Below, piece by piece: positions 2,664-40,123 of a stretch of DNA of 64,000 bases. Under the pieces are notes generated by a model. It ran no database searches. It worked only from the letters and a program-made list of their open reading frames with translations, and was not told the DNA's origin. Source of the DNA: an uncultured Gemmatimonadales bacterium (GTDB lineage Bacteria; Gemmatimonadota; Gemmatimonadetes; Gemmatimonadales; GWC2-71-9); assembly GCA_963730185.1 (NCBI GenBank), contig CAVSQW010000008.1:96001-160000 (forward strand). Direction: 5' to 3'. The position numbers and the translations under genes were made by a program. How positions within the stretch are numbered: position 1 is the stretch's first letter; each line of letters opens with the position of its first letter.

Positions 2664-4514
2664 ATGTCCGACCCGCTCCGCGATCCTGCCTGCCTCTTTG
2701 CGCCACCGGCCGTAGCGGTCGAGCGCCGCCCCGACGGCTGCGTGGTGCTCCGGTCGCCCCAAGCGCTCGCGCCCTATCCGCGGGCCATCGGCGAGTACCT
2801 GGTACAGTGGGCGGCGCGCGCCCCCGACCGGCCCTTCCTGCAGGAGCGCGGCCCCGACGGCCGGTGGCGGGGGCCGACCTACGCCGAGGCACTTCGGGCC
2901 GTGCAGCGGATCGCGACCGGCCTGATTCGGCTCGGGCTTTCGGCCGAGCGTCCGGTCATGATCCTGTCCGACAACGGCGTCGACCATGGGCTGCTCACGC
3001 TGGCGGCGCTCCACGTGGGGGTGCCCGCCGTCCCGGTGTCGCCGGCCTACTCGCTGCTCTCCCGGGATTTCCAGAAGCTCCGGCGGATCGTCGAGCTCAC
3101 CGATCCGGGGCTGGTGTACGTGGCGGATCGGACCCGTTTCGCCGCCGCGGTGGGCGCCATTCGAGACCTGTACCGGGGCGCGGTGCTCTCGAGCGGCGCC
3201 GCCGGAGATGGGGGGACGACGCTGGATGAGCTGGCCTCGGACCTCGACGAGCCGGCCGTGGCCGAGCGATTCCGGTCGGTCACGGCCGATACGGTGGCGA
3301 AGCTGCTGTTCACCTCCGGATCCACCGGCGAGCCCAAGGGGGTGGTCAACACCCAGCGGATGCTGGGTGTCGGCCAGCAGGCCCGCACCCAGATCTGGCC
3401 GTTTCTGGCCGAGGAACCGCCCGTGATCGTCGATTGGCTCCCCTGGTCTCATACCTTCGGCGCCAACCACAACTTCAACCTGGTGCTGCGGCACGGCGGC
3501 ACCCTGTATATCGACGGCGGCCGCCCGGTCCCCGGGCTGTTCGAGACGACTCTGGCGAACCTTCGCGATGTCGCCCCCACCATCTACTTCAACGTGCCGC
3601 GGGGGTACGACCTGCTGGTGACGGCGCTTCGGAAAGACCCGCAGCTCCGCCGAAGCTTCTTCCGCCGGCTGCGAGTGATCTTCTACGGCGCCGCCGCACT
3701 GCCGCAGCATCTCTGGGATGCGCTGCTGGAGCTGGCCGAGGCAACCGTCGGCTCGCCGGTTCCGGTGGTGGCCGGCTGGGGCTCCACCGAGACCGCGCCC
3801 CTCGCCGCCGACTGCCACTTCCAGGCCCGCCGGGCCGGCGTGATCGGCCTCCCCGTCCCCGGGACCGAGCTCAAGCTGGTGCCGGCCGGGCCCAAGCTGG
3901 AGGTTCGGGTCCGGGGGCCCAACGTGACGCCCGGATACTGGAAGCGGCCCGATCTCACCGCGGCGAGCTTCGATGAGGAGGGCTTCTATCGGATCGGGGA
4001 CGCGGTCCGGTTCGTGGATCCGGAGCAGCCGGCCGAGGGGCTCCTCTTCGACGGCCGGGTGGCGGAGGATTTCAAGCTGGACAGCGGCACCTGGGTGAGC
4101 GTCGGGATGCTGCGGGTGAACGCGATCGCCGCGCTCGCGCCCGTGGCCCAGGACGTGGTGGTGACGGGTCAGGACCGGCCCGAGATCGGCTTCCTGATCT
4201 TCCCCAACCTGGCGGCGTGCCGGTCGGTCGCGGCGGACCTCGCCCCGGACGCGCCCACCGAGGAGCTCCTGGCGGATCCGGCGGTCCGCGCCGCCGTGGC
4301 ACGGGGTCTGGCGAAGCTCCGCGAGGCCGGAGGCGGGTCCTCGAGCTACGCCACCCGGGCACTGCTGCTCGCGGAGCCGCCGTCGATCGATCGGGGGGAG
4401 ATCACCGACAAGGGGTACCTCAACCAGCGAGCCGTCCTGACCAACCGGACCGCGCTCGTCGCGGCCGTCGACGAGGGCCGCGACGAGGCGGGGATCATCC
4501 GGATCGCAACTTGA
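2664..4514 (+). CDS. fcs: feruloyl-CoA synthetase-type acyl-CoA ligase
   Basis: AMP-binding motif [52 protein letters not shown] and [15 protein letters not shown] are characteristic of Fcs. Confidence 0.85.
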
Positions 4515-32418: not shown

Positions 32419-34446
32419 TCAGTGCCCGTGGAGCCAGTCCCACTGTGCGGCGGCGCCCGCCACGGCCCGGTCAACGTCCTCGTCCAGCAGCATCCGGCGC
32501 GCGACCAGGTCCCGGGCGACTCGCCGAGCCCGGTCCAGGTAAGCCGCTCGGCTGGGGTAGAGTGCCGCGAGGGTCGGGCGGGGATCGCCGGTCGCTCGTC
32601 GCTCGGCCTCGGTCCGGGGGAGCGGCAGATAGGTGCCGAGAATCCGCACCAGCTCACCGGTGTCGCCCGGCAAGCCCTTCCGGAGATTCCACGGTAGATA
32701 GGTGGCGAGTGGTGCCTCGAGCTCCATCGTCCGGATCCCGCCCAGCTCGTTGCCCAGGCTGTCGACCTGCGGGACCAGCGCGGGGTAGGGCTGGCCTACG
32801 CCCGGGGGTTCGCGGTCGATGATGCCCTCGCTCCAGCGGGGCCCGAAGTCCAGCCGGTCGGCATGGTGCACCACCGCCGGCCGGCCGAGATCGGGGATGG
32901 CGGGTAGCGCCAGGCGCTCGATCGGCACCAGGGTGCCGCGATCGATCCGCGGATAGGCGGAAGGCGGCGGCTCGGTCCCGTCCTTGACCCAGCCCAGGAG
33001 GCTCCCCAACAGGGCCCGGAGCGGAAGCCGGTAGTCGAGCGGATTCCCCCGATAGGCCCGCGAATCCGGCATCCGGCTGGACTCCGGCGGCGGGAAGGGG
33101 GCGCCCACGTGCTGGCCCCCGGCCAGGTGGTAGATCCGCTCGGTGGCCGGCGGGTCGACGTCGCGGGTGCCGTCGACCGAGGTGTGGATCAGCGACGCCG
33201 CCCGGCCCCAGTACTCGTAGCCGGTGTTGACCTGGAACACCTTCGGAAGGTCGGCCGGGTCGAATTGGTGGGCGTAGAGGCCGTCGGTGACGCCGGTGAC
33301 CGGATCGGTCTGGGTGACGCTCGAGAAGGGGAAGACGTCGGTCGGGTAGAAGAAGGTGTCGTAGCGGTGCGCGTCGCGCGACGGCTGCGCGAACCGGTGG
33401 TTGAAGCTGCCTCGGCCCCCGCCCGCGACGTGGATCAGGAGACCGTCGAAGACCTTCCGGCCTCGCTCGTCGGTGTTGAATCCCTGATAGACGAAGTGAC
33501 GGAGCAGCCGGCCGGTCTGCGAGATGCCGTAGCCGACCGCGTACCGGGCGTGGAACGGACTGGCCGGATCGTACTTGGCGGCGCTCATGGCGTCGCGGAT
33601 GGCCGCGAGGCCCAGTCCCGAGACCCGGGGGTTCGAGCTCCGGTACACCAGCTCGTAGATCTTCCCGGGCTCGAATCCGCCCGGGCGATAGATCCAGCGA
33701 GGGTCGTCGACCGGCCGGCCGTCCAGCTCCCGCGCGAAGCGCCAGGTCTCGCGCGGCACCACCCGCCGAGGCGCGTACCGGCCGTCGCGCACCGTCAGCA
33801 CGTTGTCCGGCGAGGCCGGATCGAGAACGGGATAGGCGACGTGGCTCCCGTGAGCGAGCGACAGCGCTCGGACGGGACCCGGGATGACCCAATCGGCGCG
33901 AACCAGACCCGTGATCGTTTGGCCATCCGGCTCCCGGGCGATCGGCGCGTCCAGGCCGAACCGGTCGGGATCGTCGGGCGGGACGTCGTACTGCCAGCCG
34001 ACCCAGACCATGGTGAGGCCCTGTCGGAGGAGCCACCCGTCGCCGAAGTCTTCGGGCTTGGAGGGGTGGGCCGCCATCGCCGCGAAGTCGAGGATGAACG
34101 GTGCGTAGCGGAGGCCCCGGTTCGAGACCTCGAAGAAAGCGATGTTGTCCTTCGACGGATGCTTGGGACGGAGGGCGGCGAAGTCGGCCCACGCCTCCAC
34201 TCGGCCGGCGGTGTTCCGGGGAGCCAGGGCAAGGTCGACGATCCGGCCGTTGTAGCGATTGGCGGGGTCGAAGGCGAAGAGGATGCGGCCCTCGATCAGC
34301 TCGTACGGTCCGGCCGCGCCGAAGGCCCGTCCCCCGAGCACGTCGGTGCGGTGGTGGATCTCGACTCGGACGACCTCGGCCGAGGCGGGTCGGGAAGCCG
34401 CAGCCGCGGCGAACAGGGCGAGCGCCAACACGCAGGGACGCGACAT
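32419..34446 (-). CDS. exported alpha/beta-hydrolase-domain protein
   Basis: Signal peptide; GISQTG nucleophile elbow; EYWGRAASL, GGQH, VDSLGNE. Confidence 0.8.
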   Translation of the reverse strand: MSRPCVLALALFAAAAASRPASAEVVRVEIHHRTDVLGGRAFGAAGPYELIEGRILFAFDPANRYNGRIVDLALAPRNTAGRVEAWADFAALRPKHPSKDNIAFFEVSNRGLRYAPFILDFAAMAAHPSKPEDFGDGWLLRQGLTMVWVGWQYDVPPDDPDRFGLDAPIAREPDGQTITGLVRADWVIPGPVRALSLAHGSHVAYPVLDPASPDNVLTVRDGRYAPRRVVPRETWRFARELDGRPVDDPRWIYRPGGFEPGKIYELVYRSSNPRVSGLGLAAIRDAMSAAKYDPASPFHARYAVGYGISQTGRLLRHFVYQGFNTDERGRKVFDGLLIHVAGGGRGSFNHRFAQPSRDAHRYDTFFYPTDVFPFSSVTQTDPVTGVTDGLYAHQFDPADLPKVFQVNTGYEYWGRAASLIHTSVDGTRDVDPPATERIYHLAGGQHVGAPFPPPESSRMPDSRAYRGNPLDYRLPLRALLGSLLGWVKDGTEPPPSAYPRIDRGTLVPIERLALPAIPDLGRPAVVHHADRLDFGPRWSEGIIDREPPGVGQPYPALVPQVDSLGNELGGIRTMELEAPLATYLPWNLRKGLPGDTGELVRILGTYLPLPRTEAERRATGDPRPTLAALYPSRAAYLDRARRVARDLVARRMLLDEDVDRAVAGAAAQWDWLHGH

Positions 34447-34575
34447 GGACGGCTCCGGAGGGAATCCAGGGAAGATAGCCTCCGCCCGGGCGCCGAGCTC
34501 GAGTGGCGGATCTCGGGACGAAACCACGTTGAGTGAGGGGGACCGACGCAGCTTCACCCCAATCCGGAGGCCCGC

Positions 34576-35037
34576 ATGCCCGCCCGCTCCCTCGCTCGCC
34601 TGACCCTCATCTCGGCCGCCGGCTGCCTGATCGCCGCCGCCTCCCCCCCGACCCGGCATCCGGGGGGCGATCCTCCCGGCCTCTCCGTCCGCTTCGAAGA
34701 GACGCCGTTCGGGTGCCGGGTCAGCGCGAAAGCCACCAACGGCGGGAGCTACCGGCTGGCGATTTCCCGCGACAGCCAGGTCAAGAGCGGCGCCGGGCAG
34801 ATCCTCGGGGTTTGGCGGAAGCTCGGTAAGTCGGTCTGGGTGAACCCCCACGGGTCGGCCCAATGGACCTACGACCTGGCGTTCGGCTGCAACATGAACC
34901 GGACCTACCGCTTCCAGGTCAAGAAGTTCGATGCCAACGACAAGCAGCTGGGCGACTACTGGTACTACTTCCCGTCGACCACCGGCGTCAGCCACGAGAC
35001 CGCGTTCTCGCTCGGCGATCTCAACCGGTTCTTCTGA
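34576..35037 (+). CDS. hypothetical exported protein
   Basis: GGAGG RBS, signal peptide, beta-rich body with two Cys. Confidence 0.7.
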   Translation: MPARSLARLTLISAAGCLIAAASPPTRHPGGDPPGLSVRFEETPFGCRVSAKATNGGSYRLAISRDSQVKSGAGQILGVWRKLGKSVWVNPHGSAQWTYDLAFGCNMNRTYRFQVKKFDANDKQLGDYWYYFPSTTGVSHETAFSLGDLNRFF

Positions 35038-35101
35038 GGTCCCCCGGAGTGGCAGGGGCTGATTCCGGATCGGAGCGCGGCGCCGGAGTGGCTGGGGCGG
35101 C

Positions 35102-35130
35102 TTGCCGCGGCCGGTCCGTTCCGCTAGGTT
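35102..35130 (+). promoter_or_regulatory. sigma70-like promoter TTGCCG-N17-TAGGTT
   Basis: 17-bp spacer; the -10 ends 8 nt before ATG 35139 and there is no Shine-Dalgarno, consistent with leaderless initiation. Confidence 0.6.
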
Positions 35131-35138
35131 CGCTGGCG

Positions 35139-35234
35139 ATGTCATTCACGGTCTGTATGGCTTGCTGTTGTTGCTGTTGTCGCCCGATGTGTTCGGGGGA
35201 CGGCGGCGCCACTGGGGCTACGGATCGAGGATAG
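35139..35234 (+). CDS. poly-cysteine leader peptide (31 aa, 8 Cys), candidate attenuator peptide
   Basis: MSFTVCMACCCCCCRPMCSGDGGATGATDRG*; six consecutive Cys codons at 35163-35180; directly upstream of a terminator and a sulfur operon. Confidence 0.8.
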   Translation: MSFTVCMACCCCCCRPMCSGDGGATGATDRG

Positions 35235-35279
35235 ACGCCTGACGCGGGCCCGACGCCCGCCAGCATCCGAACCCACTCA

Positions 35280-35318
35280 GCGGCCGCGAGTCCCCACGAC
35301 TCGCGGCCGTTTCGCTTT
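35280..35318 (+). terminator. intrinsic terminator (attenuator) before the ATP-grasp gene
   Basis: GCGGCCGCGAGTC-CCCAC-GACTCGCGGCCGT 13-bp stem followed by TTCGCTTT, ending about 20 nt before ATG 35341. Confidence 0.8.
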
Positions 35319-35340
35319 CCGGACCGTGAAGGAATCGCTG

Positions 35341-36327
35341 ATGTCGAAGTCCCGAGCCGACTTGCCGATCGCCGTCTACTACGAGCACCCGGACTGGTTC
35401 CGGCCCCTCTTTGCCGAGCTCCACCGCCGGGGGCTGGCCTGGACGCCGATCGACGCCGGATCCCATTGGTACGACCCCACTGATCCGGAGCCGCCCTACT
35501 CACTGGTGGTGAACCGGGCCAGCCCGTCCGCGTATCTCCGCGGTCACGTGCAGTCCACCTTCCATACGCTCGACTGGCTCCGCTACCTCGACCGGGTCGG
35601 CGTGCCCGTCGTGAACGGTGCCCTGGCCTATGCGGTCGAGATCTCCAAGGCCCACCAGCTGGAGATCCTGGCCGAGCTCGGGATTCCGGCGCCCCGGGCC
35701 CGCGTCATCAACGACCCCGCCCGGGCCGTCGCGGCGGCGACCGGCCTTCGCTACCCGGTGATCGTGAAGGCCAACATCGGCGGGAGCGGCGCCGGTATCA
35801 CCCGCTTCGACACCGAGGCCTCACTGGCCGCGGCCGCCGCCGGTCTCGATCTGGGGATCGATCGAACCGCCCTGGTCCAGGAGCTGGCGCCACTCGGCGG
35901 TGGTCGGATCACCCGGGTCGAGGTGCTGGGCGGAAGGCTCCTCTACGCCATCAACGTCTACCCCTCCGGCGAGACCTTCAATCTCTGCCCGGCCGATCTC
36001 TGCCAGACCACCGACGGCCGGGCCCTGGAACGGACCTTCTGCGCGGTCGACGCGCCTCGGAGCGGGATGCGCGTCGAGCCGGCCGACCCGCCGGCCGAGA
36101 TCGTCGCCTGGGTGGAGCGGATCGCCGAGCGGGTGGGGCTCGACGTCGGGGGGATCGAGTATCTGATCGACGAGCGTGACGGGTTGCCCTACGTCTACGA
36201 CATCAACGCTCTCTCCAACTTTGTGGCCGACGCGCCTCAGGTGATCGGGTTCGATCCGTTTTCCCGGCTGGTGGACTACCTCGAGGCGCGGGCCGGTCGC
36301 CGGGTGCCCGCGGGAGCGGTCGCCTGA
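35341..36327 (+). CDS. RimK/glutathione-synthetase-like ATP-grasp protein
   Basis: YPVIVKANIGGSGAG, LVQE, GGIEYLID, YDINALSNF; GAAGGA RBS. Confidence 0.85.
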   Translation: MSKSRADLPIAVYYEHPDWFRPLFAELHRRGLAWTPIDAGSHWYDPTDPEPPYSLVVNRASPSAYLRGHVQSTFHTLDWLRYLDRVGVPVVNGALAYAVEISKAHQLEILAELGIPAPRARVINDPARAVAAATGLRYPVIVKANIGGSGAGITRFDTEASLAAAAAGLDLGIDRTALVQELAPLGGGRITRVEVLGGRLLYAINVYPSGETFNLCPADLCQTTDGRALERTFCAVDAPRSGMRVEPADPPAEIVAWVERIAERVGLDVGGIEYLIDERDGLPYVYDINALSNFVADAPQVIGFDPFSRLVDYLEARAGRRVPAGAVA

Positions 36328-37412
36328 TGCGATACGGCTATTGGCTTCCGGTCTTCGGCGGCTGGCTCCGGAACGTGCCGGGAGAGGGCATGGAGGCGAC
36401 CTGGGACTACGTGAGCCGGTTGGCGCGCCGGAGCGAGGAGATCGGGTTCGACCTCACCTTGATCGCCGAGCTCTTTCTCAACGACATCAAGGGGATCGAA
36501 GCGCCCTCGCTGGATGCCTGGTCGACGGCGGCCGGGCTCGCGGCCGTGACCCATCGGCTGGAGCTCCTGGTGGCGGTCCGGCCGACGTTTCATAACCCGG
36601 CCATCTTGGCCAAGCAGGCCGCGGCGATCGACCGGATGTCGGGGGGGCGGGTGGCGCTCAACGTGGTGTCGTCCTGGTGGTCGGACGAGGCCCGGCGCTA
36701 TGGGGTCCAGTTCGATCGGCACGACGACCGGTACGCCCGGACCGCCGAATGGCTGGCGGTGGTCGACGGCGTCTGGCGGGAGCCGTCGTTCGACTTTGCC
36801 GGATCGTACTACCAGGTGAGCGCGACGGTGCTCGAGCCCAAGCCGGTCAGGCGTCCCCGGCCACCGATCTACGCCGGCGGCGAATCCGAGGCGGCCAAGC
36901 GGCTCATCGCGGCGACCTGCGACGCCTACGTGATGCACGGCGATGCCCCCGGCGTGATCGGGCCCAAGGTGGCCGATCTGGCCGCCCGCCGGGCCCGGAC
37001 CGGCTTGCCTCCGCTCGAGTTCGGGATGGCGGCCTATGCCGTCGTCCGGCCGACCGAGCGGGAGGCCCGGCGCGAGTTGGAGCGAATCACCAACGTCGCG
37101 CCCGGGTCGGCCGGGTACGCGAACTATCAGGACTGGATCGCCAACACCCAGCTCGAGAGTCGGGTCTCCCTCGAGGACTATTCGGTCTCGAATCGGGGGC
37201 TTCGGGCCGGCTTGGTCGGAACCCCGGAGCAGGTGGCCGACCGGATCGTCGCCTTCGCGGAGGCCGGGGTGGGGTTGCTCCTGCTCCAGTCCAGTCCGCA
37301 GGCCGAAGAGATGGAGCGATTCGCCGAGCAGGTGATGCCGCTGGTGGCGGAGCGGTTGGGACCGACCGCGTCGGTCACCGGCCTGCTCGCAGCGCCCGAC
37401 GGCCGCGGATAG
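36327..37412 (+). CDS. LLM-class flavin-dependent monooxygenase, SfnG/SsuD-like
   Basis: GYWLPVFGG, LIAELFLND, AVRP, NVVSSW, IYAGGES, GLVGTPEQVA; TGATG coupling to the ATP-grasp gene. Confidence 0.85.
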   Translation: MRYGYWLPVFGGWLRNVPGEGMEATWDYVSRLARRSEEIGFDLTLIAELFLNDIKGIEAPSLDAWSTAAGLAAVTHRLELLVAVRPTFHNPAILAKQAAAIDRMSGGRVALNVVSSWWSDEARRYGVQFDRHDDRYARTAEWLAVVDGVWREPSFDFAGSYYQVSATVLEPKPVRRPRPPIYAGGESEAAKRLIAATCDAYVMHGDAPGVIGPKVADLAARRARTGLPPLEFGMAAYAVVRPTEREARRELERITNVAPGSAGYANYQDWIANTQLESRVSLEDYSVSNRGLRAGLVGTPEQVADRIVAFAEAGVGLLLLQSSPQAEEMERFAEQVMPLVAERLGPTASVTGLLAAPDGRG

Positions 37413-37466
37413 TTTTTTGCACCTGCGCGTCCCCCTGTCGCGTCAACCGAAAAGCGAGTGACTCCG

Positions 37467-38546
37467 ATGCCAGAATCCCGAACCACCGCCGGCCGAGGCC
37501 GCCTCTACGACAGCATCGTCGAGACGATCGGCGACACCCCCTGCATCCGCGTCAACCGCCTGGCCCCGGACCAGGTGTCGATCTACGTCAAAGCCGAGTT
37601 CTTCAACCCGGGCGGGTCGGTCAAGGACCGCCTGGCGATCAGCATCATCGAGGAGGCGGAGCGCCGGGGCGATCTGACGCCCGGCCAGACGGTGGTGGAG
37701 GCGACCAGCGGTAACACCGGGATCGGGCTCGCGATGGTCTGCGCGGCGAAGGGCTACCCGCTGGTGGTGACCATGGCCGACAGCTTCTCCATCGAGCGCC
37801 GCCGGCTGATGCGGTTCCTCGGCGCCAGGGTGATCCTGACGCCCCGCGCGGCCAAAGGCTACGGCATGTACGTCAAGGCCAAGGAGCTGGCCGACGCAAA
37901 TGGCTGGTTCCTGGCCCGCCAGTTCGAGACGCCCGACAACGCCCTGATCCACGAGCACACGACGGCCCGCGAGATCCTGGCCGATTTCGACGGCCGGCGG
38001 CTCGACTACTTCGTGACCGGCTACGGGACCGGCGGCACCTTTACCGGCGTGGCCAAGGTGCTCCGGAAGGATCGCCCCAAGACCAGGATCGTGCTGAGCG
38101 AGCCGGCCAATGCCCAGCTGATCGGCAGCGGGGTCGCCCAGGCCCGGGCGGCCGGGCATGCCCCGGCCGGATCACACCCGGCGTGGGAGCCGCATCCGAT
38201 TCAGGGGTGGACGCCCGACTTCATTCCCTACGTGATGCAGGACGCACTCGACCGGAAACATTATGACGAGGTCGTGCCGATCGCGGGACCTGTGGGGATG
38301 GAGTGGTCGCGCAAGCTGGCCCGCCAGGAGGGGATCTTCACCGGGATCTCGGGCGGCTCGACCTTCGCGGCGGCGCGACAGGTCGCGGAGCGAGCCGAGC
38401 CCGGGTCGGTCGTGCTCTGTATGCTGCCCGACACCGGCGAGCGCTACCTGTCGTCACCGCTGTTCGAGGGCATTCCGGAGGGAATGACCGACGAGGAGCG
38501 GGCGTTGTCGCTCTCGACGCCGGGTTTTCACATGGACCCGGCTTAA
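37467..38546 (+). CDS. cysK: cysteine synthase (O-acetylserine sulfhydrylase)
   Basis: NPGGSVKDR (PLP Lys), ATSGNTG, GTGGT, HPIQG, PDTGERYLS. Confidence 0.9.
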   Translation: MPESRTTAGRGRLYDSIVETIGDTPCIRVNRLAPDQVSIYVKAEFFNPGGSVKDRLAISIIEEAERRGDLTPGQTVVEATSGNTGIGLAMVCAAKGYPLVVTMADSFSIERRRLMRFLGARVILTPRAAKGYGMYVKAKELADANGWFLARQFETPDNALIHEHTTAREILADFDGRRLDYFVTGYGTGGTFTGVAKVLRKDRPKTRIVLSEPANAQLIGSGVAQARAAGHAPAGSHPAWEPHPIQGWTPDFIPYVMQDALDRKHYDEVVPIAGPVGMEWSRKLARQEGIFTGISGGSTFAAARQVAERAEPGSVVLCMLPDTGERYLSSPLFEGIPEGMTDEERALSLSTPGFHMDPA

Positions 38547-38691
38547 CCAAGTCGGCTCGGTCCAACCTCGAGATCCCGTCCCGCCGCCGTCGCCCAGCCT
38601 GAAACGCGTACTGGCGACGATCCCACCACTGGTCCCACCAGCGAGGCGTTGCGGTATCGCCACCTGACCCCTCGAAGGGGCCAGGTGGTGG

Positions 38692-39051
38692 TTACCGGCT
38701 GAATCCCGCGGCCGGCTCCAGGTAGGTGGGGCCCAAGCCCGCGAGCGCCGCCTTGATCTCGGCGTTGGGCGAGCCGTAGACGGAGCAGCCGGTCGGCTCC
38801 AGCACCGCCATGAACCGCTCGGCGTACCTCGCGCCGAAGGTGCCGATGTGGATCATCGCCGCCGCGGAGTCGGTGTAGCGCTCGTAGAGATGGCAGACCT
38901 TCCCATCCGGGCTCAGGTTCCACTCGTAGGCGATGGTGCCGGGCTCGTTCGCCTCGGTGGCGGCGACCATCTCCGCCATCAGGGCCCGGAAGGTGTCTCC
39001 CTGACCCTCCCGCACGTTGAGGTCCAGCCGCCAGGCCACGTTGCCGTTCAT
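38692..39051 (-). CDS. antibiotic-biosynthesis-monooxygenase (ABM) family protein
   Basis: EPGTIAYEW..LYERYTDSAAAMIH. Confidence 0.8.
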   Translation of the reverse strand: MNGNVAWRLDLNVREGQGDTFRALMAEMVAATEANEPGTIAYEWNLSPDGKVCHLYERYTDSAAAMIHIGTFGARYAERFMAVLEPTGCSVYGSPNAEIKAALAGLGPTYLEPAAGFSR

Positions 39052-39205
39052 GATGCTCTCGGGTCAGGGTCTCGGTGGGTACGGGGTCGGGGTATCCGGC
39101 CTCGGAGCGAGTGAAGGTACCACCCCGAGTCCGAAGAGCAACGGTCAGGCGGGGAGCCATTCCTCTACCTCGCTGGGAGTCGGGATCGGCGCTAGCTTCC
39201 GCACC

Positions 39206-40123
39206 ATGCCCAGACTCCATGGAAGCACCGGTCTGGCGGCCCTCGCGGCCGCCTCCCTCCTCCTCGCGGTAAGCGCCGTCCCGGACGCCTCCGCCCAAGA
39301 ACCGGCCCGGCCGCGCCCCGGCCAGCCGGTCATGCTGGTGACCGGCGCAACCAGCGGCCTGGGCCGCGAGGTGGCGCTCCGGCTCGCGGCCACAGGCGCC
39401 TTCGTGATCGTTCACGGCCGCGACTCGGCCCGCGGCGCCGAGGTGGTGTCCGAGATCGAGCAGGCGGGGAAGGGCGGGGCTCGGTTCTACGCGGCCGATT
39501 TCGCCACCAACGCGGGTGTTCGCCAGTTGGCCGACGACGTTCTTCGCGACTTCTCGCGGCTGGACGTCCTGGTGAACAACGCCGGCGTCGGCTCGGTGCC
39601 GGCCGACCGGGCCCTGACCGACAACGGGGTCGAGTACCGGATGCAGGTGAACTACCTCTCGGGGTTCCTGCTCACCCGCCTGCTCATGCCGAGGCTCCTG
39701 GCCAGCACTCCATCGCGGGTGGTCAACGTCTCGTCGCTCTCGGCCAGCCCGGTCGACTTCGACGACCCGATGATGGCCAATGGGTTCAGCCCGATGCGGG
39801 CCTACGGGCAGAGCAAGCTGTGCCAGGTAATGTTCACCTTCGACCTGGCGGCCGAGCTCGAAGGGAAGGGCGTCACCGTCAACGCCCTGCACCCGGCCAC
39901 CCTGATGCCGACCGGAATGGTGGCCAGGGCCGGATACAAGCCGCAATCGACCATCGACGAGGGCGCCAAGGCCGTGCTGCATCTGGTGCTCGACCCGGAC
40001 GTCGGTACGGGCCAGTTCTTCATCGGCCTCGAGCCGGGGAAGGCCAATGCCCAGGCCTACGACCCCGACGCCCGGGCTCGGCTCAAGGCCCTGAGCGAGC
40101 GGCTCGTCGCCGAGCGCGAGTGA
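39206..40123 (+). CDS. SDR oxidoreductase with N-terminal signal-like segment
   Basis: TGATSGLG, NNAG, YGQSK. Confidence 0.9.
   Translation: MPRLHGSTGLAALAAASLLLAVSAVPDASAQEPARPRPGQPVMLVTGATSGLGREVALRLAATGAFVIVHGRDSARGAEVVSEIEQAGKGGARFYAADFATNAGVRQLADDVLRDFSRLDVLVNNAGVGSVPADRALTDNGVEYRMQVNYLSGFLLTRLLMPRLLASTPSRVVNVSSLSASPVDFDDPMMANGFSPMRAYGQSKLCQVMFTFDLAAELEGKGVTVNALHPATLMPTGMVARAGYKPQSTIDEGAKAVLHLVLDPDVGTGQFFIGLEPGKANAQAYDPDARARLKALSERLVAERE

Follow-up and report, generated by a model that had tools for sequence, protein, structure and literature searches.

Leader-peptide attenuators of amino acid operons are known in their classical form from the trp, his, leu, thr, pheA and ilv types. Here we describe a candidate element of this kind in a stretch of 64,000 nucleotides (the window) from the genome of an uncultured Gemmatimonadales bacterium. 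Positions 35102 to 35340, directly upstream of a gene for an uncharacterised RimK-like ATP-grasp ligase, hold a short open reading frame (ORF) rich in cysteine codons and followed by hairpins. This is most probably a ribosome-mediated leader-peptide transcription attenuator that senses cysteine through charged tRNA-Cys and has a leaderless start. It shares with the classical attenuators a short ORF in which codons for the amino acid to be sensed stand in a row, alternative 1:2, 2:3 and 3:4 pairings between RNA segments (2:3 here from folding), an intrinsic terminator just before the first structural gene, and a terminator more stable than the antiterminator, so that control would be kinetic. 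In contrast to the classical attenuators, the amino acid sensed would be cysteine and the mini-ORF is apparently leaderless, with a -10 box 8 nt before the AUG and without a Shine-Dalgarno sequence. The operon is also not a canonical biosynthetic one, being composed of an uncharacterised ATP-grasp/sulfonate-monooxygenase pair plus cysK, and the phylum is Gemmatimonadota.

Cysteine leaders have been reported from other phyla. According to parts of the report by Canestrari et al. (bioRxiv 10.1101/834739), leaderless poly-Cys short ORFs (sORFs) of mycobacteria relieve repression at low cysteine through ribosome pausing at Cys codons; Ms5788A acts by opening a duplex that hides a ribosome-binding site (RBS), and for the other loci these parts leave open whether control is transcriptional or translational. 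The window leader resembles the mycobacterial elements so described in being a leaderless-type short ORF with at least two consecutive Cys codons, located before sulfur or cysteine genes. Unlike Ms5788A as portrayed there, it has a strong terminator and a predicted antiterminator, and its RBS pairing is at chance (z -0.09); it also comes from Gemmatimonadota and not Actinobacteria, and peptide similarity beyond the Cys run is not apparent. Excerpts of Brewer et al. 2021 (PMC8632094) present uORFC-8-2 of Rhodobacterales, a predicted attenuator with two Cys codons in a stem and a U-run terminator before cysS. Both leaders have tandem Cys codons inside a stem, and in both a terminator ending in a U run comes next. 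However, the excerpts place two Cys at about positions 14-15 of uORFC-8-2, whereas the window leader has six to eight with the run at codons 9-14. The former also precedes cysS in Alphaproteobacteria and is not reported in these excerpts as leaderless, and the latter precedes an ATP-grasp/monooxygenase/cysK operon in Gemmatimonadota. Seliverstov et al. 2005 (PMC1262725), in the sections concerned, list leader peptides with runs of Cys ahead of the cys/cbs operons in Mycobacterium, Propionibacterium acnes and Bifidobacterium longum; these sections give no conserved terminator hairpins for them, and the authors suggested Rho. A candidate peptide with a Cys-codon run near its stop codon, ahead of cysteine genes, is likewise present in the window, but here the terminator is strong and covarying. 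The relevant part of PMC13236596 refers to cysteine codons with a regulatory role in leaders of M. tuberculosis, and the corresponding parts of PMC8079986 and PMC2965389 describe no cysteine leader.

A literature search on Gemmatimonadota leaders and terminators found no such element described in this phylum, the supplementary sORF tables of Canestrari et al. (41 mycobacteria) lying outside its coverage; this agrees with the preliminary description of the locus, which knew of none in the lineage. The principle is textbook and the version in Gemmatimonadota is new. The element would unite a mycobacterial-style leaderless poly-Cys ORF with a classical terminator/antiterminator switch. Cysteine-sensing leader peptides, so far known from Actinobacteria and Alphaproteobacteria, would thereby also be present in Gemmatimonadota, whose gene regulation has hardly been studied.

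Promoter, reading frame and hairpins of the window leader

The following features were assigned to the leader, all on the + strand:

35102 to 35107, +: -35 box TTGCCG, from the sequence; TTGC stands at the equivalent place in 7/7 same-genus leaders
35125 to 35130, +: -10 box TAGGTT, from the sequence; 17-nt spacer from the -35 box, 8 nt before the ATG
35139 to 35234, +: leader mini-ORF of 31 codons, MSFTVCMACCCCCCRPMCSGDGGATGATDRG and stop; six genomes of the genus encode homologs of 30-33 residues
35163 to 35180, +: six-Cys codon run TGC TGT TGT TGC TGT TGT, proposed stalling site
35172 to 35187, +: segment 1, the 5' arm of hairpin 1:2, over the last Cys codons and Arg-Pro-Met
35193 to 35209, +: segment 2, which closes hairpin 1:2 as its 3' arm and would form the 5' strand of the predicted antiterminator
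35244 to 35260, +: spacer hairpin GCGGGC-CCGAC-GCCCGC, which the 2:3 helix surrounds, from folding
35280 to 35295, +: segment 3, the terminator 5' arm (35280-35292) and first loop bases, also the partner of segment 2
35298 to 35310, +: segment 4, the terminator 3' arm
35311 to 35319, +: U-rich tail TTCGCTTTC after the closing T of the stem, weaker than in relatives
35329 to 35333, +: AAGGA, similar to a Shine-Dalgarno sequence and 7 nt from the start codon of the ATP-grasp gene, from the sequence

As the preliminary description had stated, a promoter TTGCCG-N17-TAGGTT with an ATG 8 nt on and no Shine-Dalgarno sequence can be read directly from the DNA, and so can a 31-codon ORF with eight Cys codons, six of them in a row. 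The 8 nt between TAGGTT and the ATG (35139) are CGCTGGCG and include no Shine-Dalgarno-like purine run. Because the -10 box sits so close to the AUG, the start of the mini-ORF is presumably leaderless or near-leaderless. Met7 and Met17 flank the Cys run, and the stop codon is at 35232. Among the eight Cys codons, six are TGT, against 16.7% of Cys codons genome-wide (binomial ~5e-4), as counted in 1288 long ORFs with a high G+C content at third codon positions, where 0.53% of all codons are for Cys and 1.6% for Met. Leaders from related loci of at least 60% G+C have 56 TGT and 50 TGC. The genome has one tRNA-Cys gene, with anticodon GCA, and the preference for TGT may reflect slow wobble decoding, or else G-U pairs in helix 1:2.

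The unconstrained fold of 35137-35345 has an energy of -104 kcal/mol (z -4.07; 0/200 shuffles as stable) and contains both hairpin 1:2 and the terminator. Hairpin 1:2, proposed earlier as 35173-87 with 35193-207, forms 15 pairs when folded alone (35172-35187 with 35193-35208, -26.6 kcal/mol), and the pairing of segment 2 with the upstream ORF beats 996 of 1000 dinucleotide shuffles (z -3.12). It overlaps the regulatory Cys codons, and a stalled ribosome could free segment 2. The terminator, also proposed earlier as a 13-bp stem with a T-rich tail (35280-318), has 13 pairs when folded alone (35280-35292 with 35298-35310, -27.8 kcal/mol) and a tail of moderate quality. The gap between the terminator tail and the ATP-grasp ATG (35341) measures just 22 nt, which leaves no space for a promoter of the operon's own; therefore, operon transcription must pass through the hairpin.

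The antiterminator was examined in masked folds, with the mRNA hidden up to 35186 or 35193 (a ribosome on the last Cys codons) and the terminator 3' arm omitted. At minimum energy, 35196-35201 (GGGGAC) pairs with 35290-35295 (GUCCCC), and 35203-35209 with 35280-35287. The pairing originally suggested is retained in part: its GCGGC/GCCGC half (35203-07 with 35283-87) appears in the constrained fold, and its CTGGG/CTCAG half does not. In a swap test on the window's terminator 5' arm, its own segment reached -26.0 kcal/mol and segments from other families a mean of -16.7 (sd 4.2); 0/41 of these matched the window's own (z -2.23), and the mean z was below 0 in all nine families.

According to the mechanism that we propose, transcription would begin at or a few bases from AUG 35139, and a ribosome would load on the 5' end and translate the 31-codon leader. 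With ample Cys-tRNA it would reach the stop at 35232, segment 1 would re-pair with segment 2 behind it, and the terminator (35280-35310 with the U-rich tail) would then form, most transcripts stopping 22 nt short of the ATP-grasp gene. With scarce Cys-tRNA, the ribosome would stall on the six Cys codons with its footprint over segment 1, and the free segment 2 would pair with the emerging terminator 5' arm through the two helices of the masked fold. The terminator would be blocked and RNA polymerase would enter the operon, with its ATP-grasp, sulfonate-monooxygenase-like and cysK-like genes. The transcription start, leader translation, stalling and cysteine response are predicted here from sequence.

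Control could instead be mainly translational, as for mycobacterial Ms5788A, since a leaderless-type ORF with a poly-Cys run recalls the mycobacterial elements described in the parts of bioRxiv 10.1101/834739 cited above, and the unconstrained fold pairs 35139-35153 with 35322-35337, adjoining AAGGA. However, this pairing between 5' end and RBS is not kept in the related locus L001, and what the leader has in its place is a strong intrinsic terminator with covariation. For the RBS region (35319-35343), pairing with the leader is no stronger than expected by chance, 418 of 1000 shuffles being as good (z -0.09), and a leader hiding the ATP-grasp RBS was rejected as a feature on this ground. Translational control as the main mode has only a slim chance.

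Related leaders in the genus and in other phyla

An ortholog of the ATP-grasp gene (E<1e-100) is present in 9 of 21 same-genus genomes; on a wider tally, any match at all was found in 58 of 61 genomes, the unpublished genome G035 among them; G035 enters into no other result given here. All nine same-genus genomes that hold the ortholog have a Cys-rich mini-ORF upstream of it, in six cases homologous to that of the window. The leader peptides of these six loci are:

L163: MIRSVPMARCCWCRPNSSGDSSAFGSGNRD
L164: MTSPSPVMALCCCCRPMSSGDGHAYGTGDPG (the same DNA as locus L001)
L165: MMSSSPLMAMCCCCRPMSSGDGHAYGTGDRG
L166: MRTSTCMAMCSCCRPMMSGDGRAHGRGDRG
L167: MRTSICMAMCSWCRPMMSGDGRAHGRGDRG
L175: MIRSLSMAMCCCCCCCRPNSSGDSSAFGSGNRD

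Metagenome contigs searched for nearer relatives gave 73% identity at best, and two soil-metagenome DNA runs contained small shares of the stretch (0.07 and 0.05). The pattern TTGC..-N17-TAnnnT-N7/8-ATG occurs in 7/7 same-genus leaders of the window type although the intervening bases diverge, and so there is conservation of the promoter spacing, by which the AUG would come to lie at the 5' end. The mini-ORF, the 1:2 hairpin and the terminator are likewise kept in all seven. Between fixed flanks the Cys cluster is variable (CCWC, CSCC, CSWC, CCCC, six C, seven C). When the seven sequences are aligned, 92.4% of the cells of the segment 1 helix (1:2) are paired, and 91.3% of those of 1:2 plus 3:4 together, with one compensatory pair in either count. 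The terminators of the relatives have tails with runs of 5-8 T. With the mRNA under a stalled ribosome hidden and the 3' arm omitted, 7/7 leaders pair 9-10 of the 13 nt of the terminator 5' arm with a segment located 17-29 nt past the last Cys codon, with small register shifts. The spacer hairpin recurs with other sequence in L163, L166, L167 and L175, and is absent from L164 and L165.

High-GC DNA yields many spurious ORFs and stable folds, and the other long TGY runs of this genome are plain (TTG/TGT)n microsatellites. The mini-ORF might accordingly be a chance ORF in GC-rich intergenic DNA, and the hairpin the terminator of the upstream gene. Against this, frame, start, stop and promoter spacing are kept in six same-genus genomes. 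The search of the 5.27-Mb genome (69.5% G+C; 17 contigs, 81.8% completeness) found no other intergenic Cys/Met-rich short ORF with a strong terminator. From the stop of the upstream gene (35037) to the hairpin the distance is about 245 nt, and the ATP-grasp ATG follows after 22 nt. A chance origin is very unlikely, the least probable of the explanations considered.

A second leader type in the genus, M..GHQGCCCC(R) followed by the stop, is found in L168-L170 and L002, about 60-160 nt before the ATP-grasp start. These leaders have a strong hairpin immediately 5' of UGU-rich Cys codons, and the codons may double as the U-rich tail of the terminator.

Beyond the genus, we collected 160 ATP-grasp loci, 80 from genomes (by means of an alignment of 20 homologs) and 80 from metagenomes; six with less than 200 nt upstream were dropped, leaving 154. 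Mini-ORFs were scored by their highest combined number of Cys and Met over a stretch of 10 residues, two Cys being the minimum. A score of at least 5 was reached on the sense strand of 47 of the 154 loci and on the antisense strand of one; at a score of at least 6 the figures are 29 and 0. For the first 80 loci the count at score 5 is 22 sense versus 0 antisense, and 0.06% of mononucleotide shuffles reach 5. The 24 positives among the first 80 comprise 17 Gemmatimonadota, three Pyrinomonadaceae, one Vicinamibacterales, two Pontibacter and one Pirellula, the last being doubtful because it has no terminator. The same layout is found before orthologous operons of other families and phyla.

The window and the 47 positives make a set of 48 leaders, of which 43 have a terminator after the Cys cluster (at most -12 kcal/mol, plus a U-rich tail). 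The best partner of the terminator 5' arm starts 0-21 nt past the cluster in 42 of these 43 (the exception is L122); compared with shuffles, the 5'-arm pairing has a mean z of -1.57, with p<0.05 in 14/43. Of the 48 leaders, 18 have a complete promoter whose end is 5-9 nt from the start codon of the mini-ORF, versus 5/510 other ATG/GTG codons of the same regions. In an alignment of 14 Gemmatimonadota leaders, which represent three peptide families, pairing in the terminator helix amounts to 94.8% and 7 of its 11 pairs have changes on both sides, a level reached by 0/500 shuffles. As this MAFFT alignment (A3) misregisters segment 2 between families, only the terminator was counted on it.

A group of acidobacterial leaders, ..QMCACFCCCxPxxERTDVYVT and stop (L063, L073, L075, L143-L145, L148, L153, L157 and L160), lies about 60-270 nt before the ATP-grasp start. 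Their conserved 'ERT(D)' is encoded by GAGCGGAC, which pairs with GGCCGCTC of the terminator 5' arm, and so the conservation of the peptide reflects an antiterminator strand; the conserved 'peptide' residues past the Cys run are in truth RNA pairing strands. Antisense Cys-rich short ORFs in the 500 nt that precede the ATP-grasp match (at 4001) were seen in L012 (..LASTCCCACCGS..) and L062 (..SDRCCC and stop), and might be leaders of divergently transcribed genes.

Several observations weigh against attenuation by a stalled ribosome. The window's terminator tail, TTTCGCTTTC, is moderately U-rich and weaker than the T runs of the relatives, and a strict consensus scan, with criteria stricter than a GC-rich element meets, listed neither this terminator nor the promoter. 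Masked folding gives the 2:3 helix when the 3' arm is omitted, but the full-length masked fold retains the terminator (-62.6 versus about -48.8 kcal/mol antiterminated); any switch must therefore be kinetic. Kinetic control, with the terminator as the stabler of the two structures, is established for classical attenuators. When compared with shuffles of its own leader, the 2:3 duplex of the window (-26.0 kcal/mol) has a z of -1.05 (p 0.16). In the genus the 2:3 helix is 84.6% paired with no changes on both sides, hence without covariation support, and one of its pairs holds in the window only; since the helix hardly varies, the genus alignment is uninformative on this point. About two-thirds of the ATP-grasp loci have no Cys-rich mini-ORF at the threshold used, and 5 of the 48 leaders (L031, L032, L058, L060 and L080) have no terminator by the criteria used. 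Finally, the loci are kin and some are duplicates (L007/L098, L136/L137), so that the counts overstate independence. The sequence of events put forward initially, in which a stalled ribosome frees segment 2 and allows read-through, is the best-supported reading, given the conserved elements, the masked folds (7/7) and the recurrence of the layout elsewhere.

SAM-II riboswitches and methionine codons

Upstream regions of the ATP-grasp loci also hold a metabolite-binding RNA. SAM-II (RF00521) was found above the Rfam threshold in 4 of 16 loci scanned (L006, L024, L035 and L038) and in 4 of 17 in another scan (L048, L049, L050 and L159). A profile built from the first four matches 15 of 156 upstream regions, seven of these below Rfam's score. 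In these eight relatives, whose loci are of Gemmatimonadota type, SAM-II has the same position as the window leader, before the orthologous ATP-grasp/monooxygenase pair, and it likewise reports the sulfur amino-acid pool. Unlike the window leader, it binds a metabolite and needs no ORF, and the window has no RF00521 match.

The SAM-II loci bear on the possibility that the window terminator is regulated, or merely leaky, under a protein, a small-molecule-binding RNA or Rho, with the Cys-rich ORF as a by-product of RNA constraints. That relatives carry a riboswitch at the same position fits such control, and RNA constraints do shape the 'peptide', whose residues after the Cys run are kept since they encode pairing strands. 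However, the Rfam search of 33000-40000 matched no family at E<=1, SAM-II included, and the scan of the same-genus loci matched none either. Unrelated leader families share a Cys/Met cluster within a start-to-stop ORF, and do so on the sense strand only (47 vs 1). The choice between TGC and TGT and the make-up of the Cys cluster vary between fixed flanks, and the promoter is placed so that the AUG would fall at the 5' end. Control without a ribosome is unlikely, ranking first among the alternatives to attenuation.

Two loci, L049 (3655-3726) and L159 (431-506), have SAM-II and then a Cys/Met leader ORF with its own terminator, a tandem arrangement with two inputs. Methionine was counted in leaders picked on Cys alone (at least three Cys in 10 residues; 62 loci, some frames doubtful): it makes up 69 of the 538 non-Cys residues from -3 to +3 of the cluster, versus 1.6% in the ORFs of the window genome. 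Tentatively, the window element may be part of a cross-phylum class that senses sulfur status through both Cys and Met codons, is interchangeable or in tandem with SAM-II, and marks the ATP-grasp/sulfonate-monooxygenase pair as a sulfur-starvation pathway in Gemmatimonadota, Acidobacteriota and Bacteroidota; we regard this wider proposal as possible and the less likely outcome.

The downstream operon and other leaders of the genome

Three genes follow the leader on the same strand:

35341 to 36327, +: RimK-like ATP-grasp ligase, uncharacterised
36327 to 37412, +: luciferase-like flavin monooxygenase of the alkanesulfonate/dimethylsulfone monooxygenase group
37458 to 38546, +: CysK-like pyridoxal phosphate (PLP) enzyme of the cysteine synthase family

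The sulfur genes ending in cysK that had been noted downstream are present, with the PLP enzyme slightly below the cut-off of the cysK model (343.7 versus 350.95 bits). The nearest solved structures of the monooxygenase are 3rao and PDB 8vw6, the latter named alkanesulfonate monooxygenase (E 2.6e-109), and it also matches dimethylsulfone monooxygenase (E 8e-50). From the 46-nt gap on the same strand, the cysK-like gene is probably co-transcribed with the pair. Among 67 relatives with enough sequence to show it, 60 have the monooxygenase gene directly 3' of the ATP-grasp gene, and cysK is downstream in none of the 67; therefore, the cysK linkage is particular to the window genome. The operon contents, a CysK-like and a sulfonate-monooxygenase-like enzyme, fit cysteine supply. 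The operon is likely one for sulfur scavenging and cysteine synthesis, most likely switched on when cysteine is short.

The ATP-grasp protein has weak matches to RimK, LysX and cyanophycin-synthetase-type ligases and no characterised close relative. It has at least 7997 relatives at E<=0.001, and the named homologs are nearly all from Gemmatimonadota. As its gene stands under Cys/Met leaders or SAM-II, the ligase very probably has its role in supplying sulfur amino acids. This is a clue to the function of an uncharacterised enzyme that is very widespread and tightly paired with a sulfonate-monooxygenase-like gene. The pair is tightly conserved across several phyla (window 35341-37412, L001-L160), and an alignment of 20 ATP-grasp homologs has three invariant Cys (C216, C221 and C234).

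A short Cys-rich ORF, an ATP-grasp ligase and a read-through terminator make a layout like that of some clusters for ribosomally synthesised and post-translationally modified peptides (RiPPs). The mini-ORF stands directly before such a ligase and co-occurs with it at many loci, and its Cys-rich product could thus be functional in itself, as a RiPP precursor on which the ATP-grasp enzyme acts or as a peptide with metal or redox activity, with the terminator setting the ratio of peptide to enzyme mRNA. Yet about two-thirds of the ATP-grasp/monooxygenase loci have no such ORF at threshold (present in 47/154), some having SAM-II instead. The leader families have only Cys/Met codons in common, the L058 and L060 peptides end at the Cys run, and the matches of the ligase to RimK, LysX and cyanophycin-synthetase-type ligases are weak. 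A His-rich leader of like design, moreover, precedes hisGDC in the same genome. A functional peptide is improbable, second in rank to control without a ribosome and ahead of translational control.

The His-rich leader came from a search of the whole genome for leaderless leaders, defined as TTGNNN-N16-18-TANNNT-N5-9-start with an ORF of 8-50 codons and a terminator. This gave 140 promoter-plus-start matches, of which three pass all criteria: the window leader and the two elements below (G000 is the genome of the window).

L192:2950-3120 (G000 contig C6, ~230550-230720), -: His leader TTGACC-N17-TAGCTT-N8-ATG, MNGSLHHHGHHRHGLSGRGRERGRG and stop, with terminator CCGGCCCGTCC..GGACGGGCC plus TTTCGTTTTC
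L193:2860-3060 (G000 contig C14, ~261160-261360), -: third leaderless short ORF MNRVTSTTPHVVTDGLKAGGTSKAMPKRTGRGGVRAS and stop, with a terminator, before an ArgE/DapE-type deacylase gene and asd

The His leader, MNGSLHHHGHHRHGLSGRGRERGRG, includes HHHGHHRH and stands directly before hisG-hisD-hisC. The histidine logic of leader-peptide attenuation is textbook, and the genome therefore uses the leaderless leader-peptide design for histidine.

A genome-wide cysteine regulon of leaders like that of the window was looked for and not found: among 26 Cys/Met-rich short ORFs, all others are off-frame in genes or have no terminator. An intergenic inverted repeat, TACCGCAGAGGACGCAGAGG ... CCTCTGCG..CTGCGGTAA, surrounds (GTT/TGT/GGT)n microsatellites at four places of G000 (C2:175300-175700, C7:290100-290450, C15:83700-84050 and C6:441550-441850). 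These elements were discarded as leaders, as they are poly-Cys in one frame and microsatellite in nature. The candidate at C6:402179 was likewise discarded, its Cys/Met ORF being false and really a direct repeat. This intergenic tandem repeat (L161:290-345; G000 C6, ~402190-402245) has CCGGTGTATGATA(A/G)TGC twice and an operator-like look.

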